Below, piece after piece: positions 26,321 through 26,488 of a DNA stretch of 64,000 nucleotides (its first letter is position 1; each line of letters starts with the position of its first letter). A program made the position numbers and the translations under genes. The notes beneath the pieces were generated by a model, which ran no database searches, had not been told where the DNA came from, and was given only the letters and a program-made list of their open reading frames with translations. This stretch comes from Candidatus Thorarchaeota archaeon (GTDB lineage: Archaea; Asgardarchaeota; Thorarchaeia; Thorarchaeales; Thorarchaeaceae). Where the stretch lies: contig JAWOEX010000021.1 of assembly GCA_046482545.1 (NCBI GenBank), forward strand, positions 128,001 to 192,000, given 5' to 3'.

Positions 26321-26423
26321 TGGGGCCGAGAGCGGGAATTGAACCCGCGGCTAGGGAGCCACAATCCCCAAGGTTGCCAGAGGGCCTGCCCAATGTCATC
26401 AGGCAGTCTACCCCATCTCGGCC
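26321..26423 (-). tRNA. tRNA-His(GUG) with 28-nt intron at 15/16 (26380-26407); encoded G-1 and CCA
   Basis: G-GCCGAGA/TCTCGGC-C-CCA acceptor, GGGGA-TTGTGGC-TCCCT anticodon arm, GCGGG-TTCAATT-CCCGC T arm; removing the insert restores D arm GGGT-AGTGGCA-ACCT. Confidence 0.92.
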
Positions 26424-26488
26424 ATTACTGTTTCTGAAAAATCTGGGATGGCTTATTATCTTATTCCTTCTTGGCAGATATAACCATT

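Follow-up and report, generated by a model that had tools for sequence, protein, structure and literature searches.

An intron at position 15/16 in the D loop of a Thorarchaeia tRNA-His gene, of a kind already described for Asgard archaea

The tRNA-His gene of this Candidatus Thorarchaeota archaeon, which lies in the window (the whole 64,000-nucleotide stretch of DNA analyzed here), carries a real 28-nt intron at position 15/16, one of a type known from earlier work on Asgard archaea. We are highly confident that it is an ordinary protein-spliced archaeal intron of the D loop, with an HBh' motif, which the organism's own EndA would remove and which most likely persists as a near-neutral, tolerated insertion. 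The tRNA-His(GUG) precursor gene runs on the minus strand from 26423 (G-1) to 26321 (the end of CCA), a length of 103 nt, and its parts are as follows.

26321 to 26423, minus strand: pre-tRNA-His(GUG) gene; a BLAST search with the spliced form matches these two exons alone in the assembly
26408 to 26423, minus strand: exon 1, from G-1 (26423) to G15 (26408), 16 nt; G-1 pairs with C73
26380 to 26407, minus strand: 28-nt intron at position 15/16
26321 to 26379, minus strand: exon 2, from U16 to A76, 59 nt; C73 (26324) and CCA (26323-26321) are encoded
26410 to 26413, minus strand: 5' strand of the D stem, G10-U13, which doubles as the 5' strand of the precursor's central helix
26407 to 26409, minus strand: 5' bulge, A14 G15 ^ A, with the predicted cut after G15
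26386 to 26406, minus strand: intron hairpin, stem 26406-26399 with 26393-26386, loop 26398-26394
26382 to 26385, minus strand: 3' strand of the central helix, GCCC, competitor of the 3' strand of the D stem
26379 to 26381, minus strand: 3' splice site, U C ^ U16, with no exon-side helix closing it
26371 to 26374, minus strand: 3' strand of the D stem, A22-U25, partner of bases 10-13 in the mature tRNA
26360 to 26362, minus strand: anticodon GUG
26452 to 26460, minus strand: probable archaeal TATA-like promoter box, ∼30-37 nt upstream of G-1

In the predicted precursor, bases 10-13 (GGGU) pair at all four positions with GCCC at the end of the intron, and this 4-bp central helix is flanked by a true 3-nt 5' bulge (AG^A), closed by the intron stem, and by an open 3-nt 3' site (UC^U) on the opposite strand. 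The intron stem has 8 bp and a 5-nt loop, drawn by ViennaRNA as 9 bp and a 3-nt loop. The outer, exon-side helix has 0 bp here and in all eight intron-bearing members of the family, so that the motif falls outside the strict hBHBh' form and into the relaxed HBh' class (central helix plus intron-side helix). Its absence is set by the exons, because the short D loop places G9 and U8 opposite G18 and G19; G9 does pair with the first base of the 3' bulge with a probability of 0.58 in ViennaRNA, and the central helix can thus breathe to 5 bp. When the intron was shuffled, a full central helix with at least eight inner pairs arose at this boundary in 5 of 100,000 cases, and one with at least two inner pairs in 1.2%; the whole precursor folds with a z of -3.0. 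The initial annotation had described a 28-nt insert at 26380-26407, position 15/16, with a relaxed BHB motif lacking the exon-side helix, and all of these particulars are borne out.

Cutting after the second bulge base at each site, as the initial annotation had proposed, joins the exons into a normal 75-nt tRNA. ARAGORN draws it as a regular tRNA-His(GUG) cloverleaf in which G-1 pairs with C73, the acceptor stem has 7 bp and the D stem 4 bp, the D loop reads AGUGGCA and CCA is encoded. The archaeal tRNA-His identity features G-1, C73 and the GUG anticodon are all present, with G-1 (the G at 26423) and CCA both in the DNA as previously reported, and a search of the genome found no Thg1, which is consistent with the encoded G-1. 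The anticodon arm is uninterrupted, and this is hence not a canonical 37/38 intron. The concern about scanners holds for simple ones: ARAGORN returns a truncated 80-nt His from the uncut gene or, with introns allowed, a tRNA-Gly(CCC). The Rfam tRNA model matches 26422-26324 with 42.4 bits. Upstream, a GATAAGCTAATAAG-like box precedes the His genes across the family, and the box at 26452-26460 may serve as the promoter, judging by its sequence; a sigma-70 promoter scan found nothing, although that model is not applicable to archaea.

The predicted position of the junction is supported by comparison with relatives. The intron-less His genes of two members of the same family (G013 and G006) read GGGUAGUGGCAACCU, identical to the predicted spliced D arm, and the cut after G15 that these orthologues match is also the one given by the sequence and the established BHB rule. 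Since the first intron base is A and the last is C, and G15 and U16 flank them, the boundary cannot slide without altering the D loop. In four relatives (G017, G034, G282 and G307) the intron and exon 2 begin with the same base, and on sequence alone the junction there could slide, which would allow a real intron with its junction elsewhere, for example at 16/17 or 14/15. [quoted passage not shown] In two other species of the genus the exons are identical and the locus is syntenic, whereas the introns are 79-82% identical, the changes falling in the loop, at the loop-side end of the stem and in two of the last three intron bases.

Of the 60 central-helix cells in the fifteen Asgard His introns scored at this site, 53 are paired. 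Sliding the register by 1-3 nt lowers this to 12-34 of 60, and combining the exons of one lineage with the introns of another gives 70%. The GCCC strand and its counterparts covary with the exon at bases 11 and 12, with G-C in six introns and U-A in six at position 11, and G-C in seven and A-U in six at position 12. Between genera, intron identity is mostly 32-56%, compared with a mean of 43% (95th percentile, 56%) for shuffled sequences and 79-82% within the genus; the intron sequences are thus unrelated, yet the central helix is kept, because exon and intron have changed in compensation. All these genomes are related and do not count as independent samples, so the figures show a kept shape, not a probability. 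The helix is imperfect, with two or three of the four pairs, in 6 of the 15 relatives, which makes for loose conservation of the motif. Opposite U13 stands G in 11 of the 15 introns and A in 4. Breaks are most frequent in the position-10 pair (5 of 15), and fraying thus occurs at the helix end that has no outer helix next to it.

These pairings bear on whether the insert might stay in the tRNA, which would then function with an enlarged, hairpin-bearing D loop. With the other stems held, fixed-structure energies are -44.6 kcal/mol for the BHB form and -40.4 kcal/mol for the D-stem form, and the D stem could therefore still close around the insert at a cost of ∼4.2 kcal/mol. Five salt-lake metatranscriptomes contain parts of the region, and the contigs of four of them cover flanking genes only, with neither the tRNA nor any joints; the spliced junction is thus absent from metatranscriptome contigs, none of which covers the tRNA gene. 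A retained insert would, however, split G15 from G18-G19 and break the core geometry of tRNA. Its 3' end also changes in step with exon bases 10-13 as the BHB register requires, a match for which an unspliced appendage would have no use. We consider this reading extremely improbable, and conclude from the sequence that EndA very probably removes the intron.

The same energies qualify the earlier statement that the D arm cannot form until splicing. The BHB and D-stem pairings are mutually exclusive, and in these models the precursor prefers the spliceable BHB shape; this part stands, although a gap of ∼4.2 kcal/mol amounts to a preference and not to a block. In ViennaRNA the pair probability in the precursor is 0.002 for the D stem and 0.73 for the central helix, but the program also gives 0.0 for the D stem in the spliced tRNA, so we used the fixed-structure energy difference in place of these probabilities as evidence. 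The sequestration of bases 10-13 follows from the cut lying two bases after a 4-bp helix, as is forced for any cut after base 15, and by the same rule a 37/38 intron uses bases 32-35 as a strand of its central helix. Because the geometry forces this overlap, sequestration of the D stem is not separate evidence of function.

The genome encodes the enzymes that such splicing would call for. Of its two EndA paralogues, the alpha subunit (187 aa) aligns to Aeropyrum pernix EndA, the closest among solved structures, with an E value of 5e-52, keeps the catalytic triad Y125, H133 and K164, and has the L1/CSL (Crenarchaea-specific) loop with a lysine, K42, equivalent to APE K44; the second paralogue lacks the catalytic His, as in a beta subunit. 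The L1/CSL loop is conserved in Asgard (PMC5829648). In A. pernix, the loop and its lysine permit cleavage of D-loop and relaxed introns, and the enzyme cleaves D-loop introns with no extra factors but requires K44 (PMC3241643). By analogy with these homologues, an (alpha-beta)2 EndA of the broad-specificity type appears to be present, and the subunit architecture, which the initial annotation had singled out for determination, is the two-subunit one, complete with the triad and CSL K42. RtcB (C26:96258-97568) and TgtA, the G15 archaeosine transglycosylase (C26:52403-53380), are encoded on the same contig as tRNA-His.

We therefore picture the following course, on the strength of characterized homologues. 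The gene would be transcribed from its own upstream TATA-like promoter, and the precursor would adopt the BHB shape; (alpha-beta)2 EndA, with its L1/CSL loop, would cut after G15 and before U16; RtcB would ligate the exons; and the freed bases 10-13 could then pair with 22-25, giving the normal tRNA-His with its encoded ends.

The state of the locus itself was weighed against the possibility that it is a pseudogene or an integration remnant and that the functional tRNA-His is missing from the assembly. The assembly is a draft, tRNA genes often go unassembled, and the adjoining gene is broken in this genome. Yet no second tRNA-His gene or His half was found by BLAST, Rfam or a custom scan of the 98.9%-complete assembly (45 contigs); another intact tRNA-His, with this copy silent, was the finding that the initial annotation had named as speaking against its reading. 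Three species of the genus share both exons unchanged but differ by ∼20% in the intron, the stems and identity elements of the tRNA are all intact, the locus is syntenic within the genus, and its neighbors are shared with the His loci of other genera, intron-bearing or not. The intron, moreover, has no other copy in the genome, where BLAST gives only chance-length matches of 11-15 nt. A defunct locus is, on this evidence, scarcely credible.

The broken neighbor is an MBL-fold (Lactamase_B_2) gene immediately upstream of tRNA-His (27161-26489, minus strand). An early TAA (26975-26973) and a frameshift close to 26760 interrupt it here, whereas both congeners have an intact 226-aa frame; it is probably a recent pseudogene or an assembly error. 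A BHB-type insert in this gene was ruled out, as it has a point stop and a frameshift and no intron-sized insert relative to the 226-aa orthologues.

The intron is patchily distributed. Among the 52 family genomes with a scorable His gene, 8 (in four genera) carry the 15/16 intron, 2 have a His D-loop intron at ∼20a instead, and in 42 the site is empty and the D loop uninterrupted; these counts come from a survey pattern that requires an uninterrupted stretch from anticodon to T arm, misses His genes with introns there and gave no match in 33 of 86 family genomes, and they leave out an odd match (G104) and a partial duplicate (G072). In a sample of the remainder of the phylum, four further Asgard families have the intron (G054, G197 and G209; G282, G252 and G250; G307; and G156 and G116, whose introns of 21 nt were read by eye), which brings the total to 17 genomes in five Asgard families. 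A collection-wide pattern scan gave seven chance bacterial matches and one real Asgard locus, with the same sequence as G017. Proteins encoded next to the His genes in genomes of this family carry the names Candidatus Thorarchaeota archaeon or Promethearchaeota archaeon, which indirectly places the host in Asgard and very probably in Thorarchaeia.

Other arrangements of the His gene were seen in the course of this survey. The two introns near 20a (L034 in G021 and L035 in G030, genus g5) are different ones that use G15-G19 as the central helix, and two other g5 genomes have no His D-loop intron. In G072 (C133; L045 and L046) a second copy of the 3' part of tRNA-His lies ∼2.9 kb away from the complete gene, as if a small element had integrated there; G033 carries two full-length His genes that differ slightly. 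Loci in other Asgard families (L095, L096, L112 and L107) have two His introns, one at 15/16 and one near the anticodon stem or at 22/23, and the His insert of G138 appears to repeat part of the anticodon arm.

Position 15/16 is thus common, and not rare, in Asgard, and is already present in published tRNA tables for other tRNAs; the earlier suggestion of rarity falls on both counts. Among the tRNAscan-SE calls in Supplementary Data 4 of Valentin-Alvarado et al. 2024 (PMC11291895) are seven introns of Atabeyarchaeia and Freyarchaeia at an offset of 15 nt from the gene start (Ser-GCT twice, Trp, Gly-CCC, Pro-GGG, Ile2 and Lys-CTT), where reading the offset of 15 as position 15/16 assumes that the listed start is base 1. 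The same table has a D-arm intron in a His gene at an offset of 13. Goswami et al. (bioRxiv 10.64898/2026.10.13.758758), in the available text of the preprint, report that Asgard tRNAs frequently have D-arm insertions, that these account for half of the insertions missed by the annotator and that the same sites are used again and again; under their scoring, in which four central pairs and one flanking helix suffice, the tRNA-His motif would fall within the canonical classes. As far as these two sources are available, the introns they describe resemble ours in being short, BHB-type D-arm introns, with scanner miscalls, a two-subunit EndA and repeated use of sites. They differ in that the papers center on Atabeyarchaeia and Freyr/Jordarchaeia, with Thorarchaeia going without mention in the preprint's main text, and a His intron at 15/16 is not named in the available text of either.

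More distant systems offer partial parallels. The pre-tRNA-Glu(UUC) of Methanopyrus kandleri, whose intron lies at 20b/21 and whose mature tRNA is seen in RNA-seq, is alike in its D-loop site, HBh' motif and (alpha-beta)2 EndA; there, however, the central helix does not involve bases 10-13, and the enzyme lacks the L1 loop that the EndA of this genome has (PMC5829648). The D-loop intron of A. pernix pre-tRNA-Thr(UGU) is likewise a substrate of an (alpha-beta)2 EndA that carries the CSL lysine, but it has a full BHB and was tested experimentally (PMC3241643), whereas the tRNA-His intron has no exon-side helix and is known from sequence. Non-canonical introns of Thermoproteales and other TACK archaea fall into the same classes (BHB, HBh' and hBH) at many tRNA positions (PMC4090602, which reviews Marck and Grosjean 2003 and Sugahara 2008); the open-ended list of examples in that review (20/21, 22/23, 25/26, 29/30 and others) does not name 15/16. 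Thermoproteales introns are copied between tRNAs, whereas the tRNA-His intron has no sister copy and so does not belong to a transposed-intron family.

Within this genome, at least nine other tRNA genes carry D-arm inserts with BHB-like ends, at C28:79941-80050, C28:174693-174802, C38:60646-60755, C26:212419-213001, C28:146864-147002, C28:59557-59661, C28:207539-207711 and C34:15773-15919. The sites, read by eye, are Glu(CUC) 10/11, two Pro 17/17a, twin Arg 19/20, Asp and Ser near 20a, Pro(GGG) 21/22 and Lys(CUU) 22/23. With so many tRNAs bearing such inserts, His is not special in this genome.

This distribution also bears on whether the spliced intron has a selected role, either by ordering splicing before archaeosine formation and core folding or by limiting the supply of tRNA-His. 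[quoted passage not shown] Against such a role, 42 of 52 family genomes do without a His D-loop intron, several intron-bearing relatives have A15, two have their intron at a different D-loop site, and inserts occur at many other positions in the same genome. We judge a selected role unlikely, the patchy presence fitting tolerance better than need. The bolder proposal, that 15/16 of tRNA-His is a true Asgard insertion hot spot since the intron end mimics the 3' strand of the D stem, and that the precursor is a checkpoint that places splicing before archaeosine at G15 and core folding of the sole tRNA-His, seems to us equally doubtful. The ordinary, near-neutral intron remains the preferred reading: the insertion is most likely tolerated, selection would maintain the shape needed for splicing and not the sequence, and 15/16 of tRNA-His would have been occupied repeatedly in Asgard lineages.

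The significance of this intron is modest, and it reveals no new mechanism. It corrects the annotation of an essential single-copy tRNA-His, which ARAGORN truncates or calls as Gly. It also brings Thorarchaeia, a class outside the main text of the two key papers as far as that text is available, into the range of the known Asgard D-arm introns. Together with the compensatory changes, the His genes with and without unrelated introns at one site form a natural panel for gauging how relaxed the EndA of Asgard archaea is.
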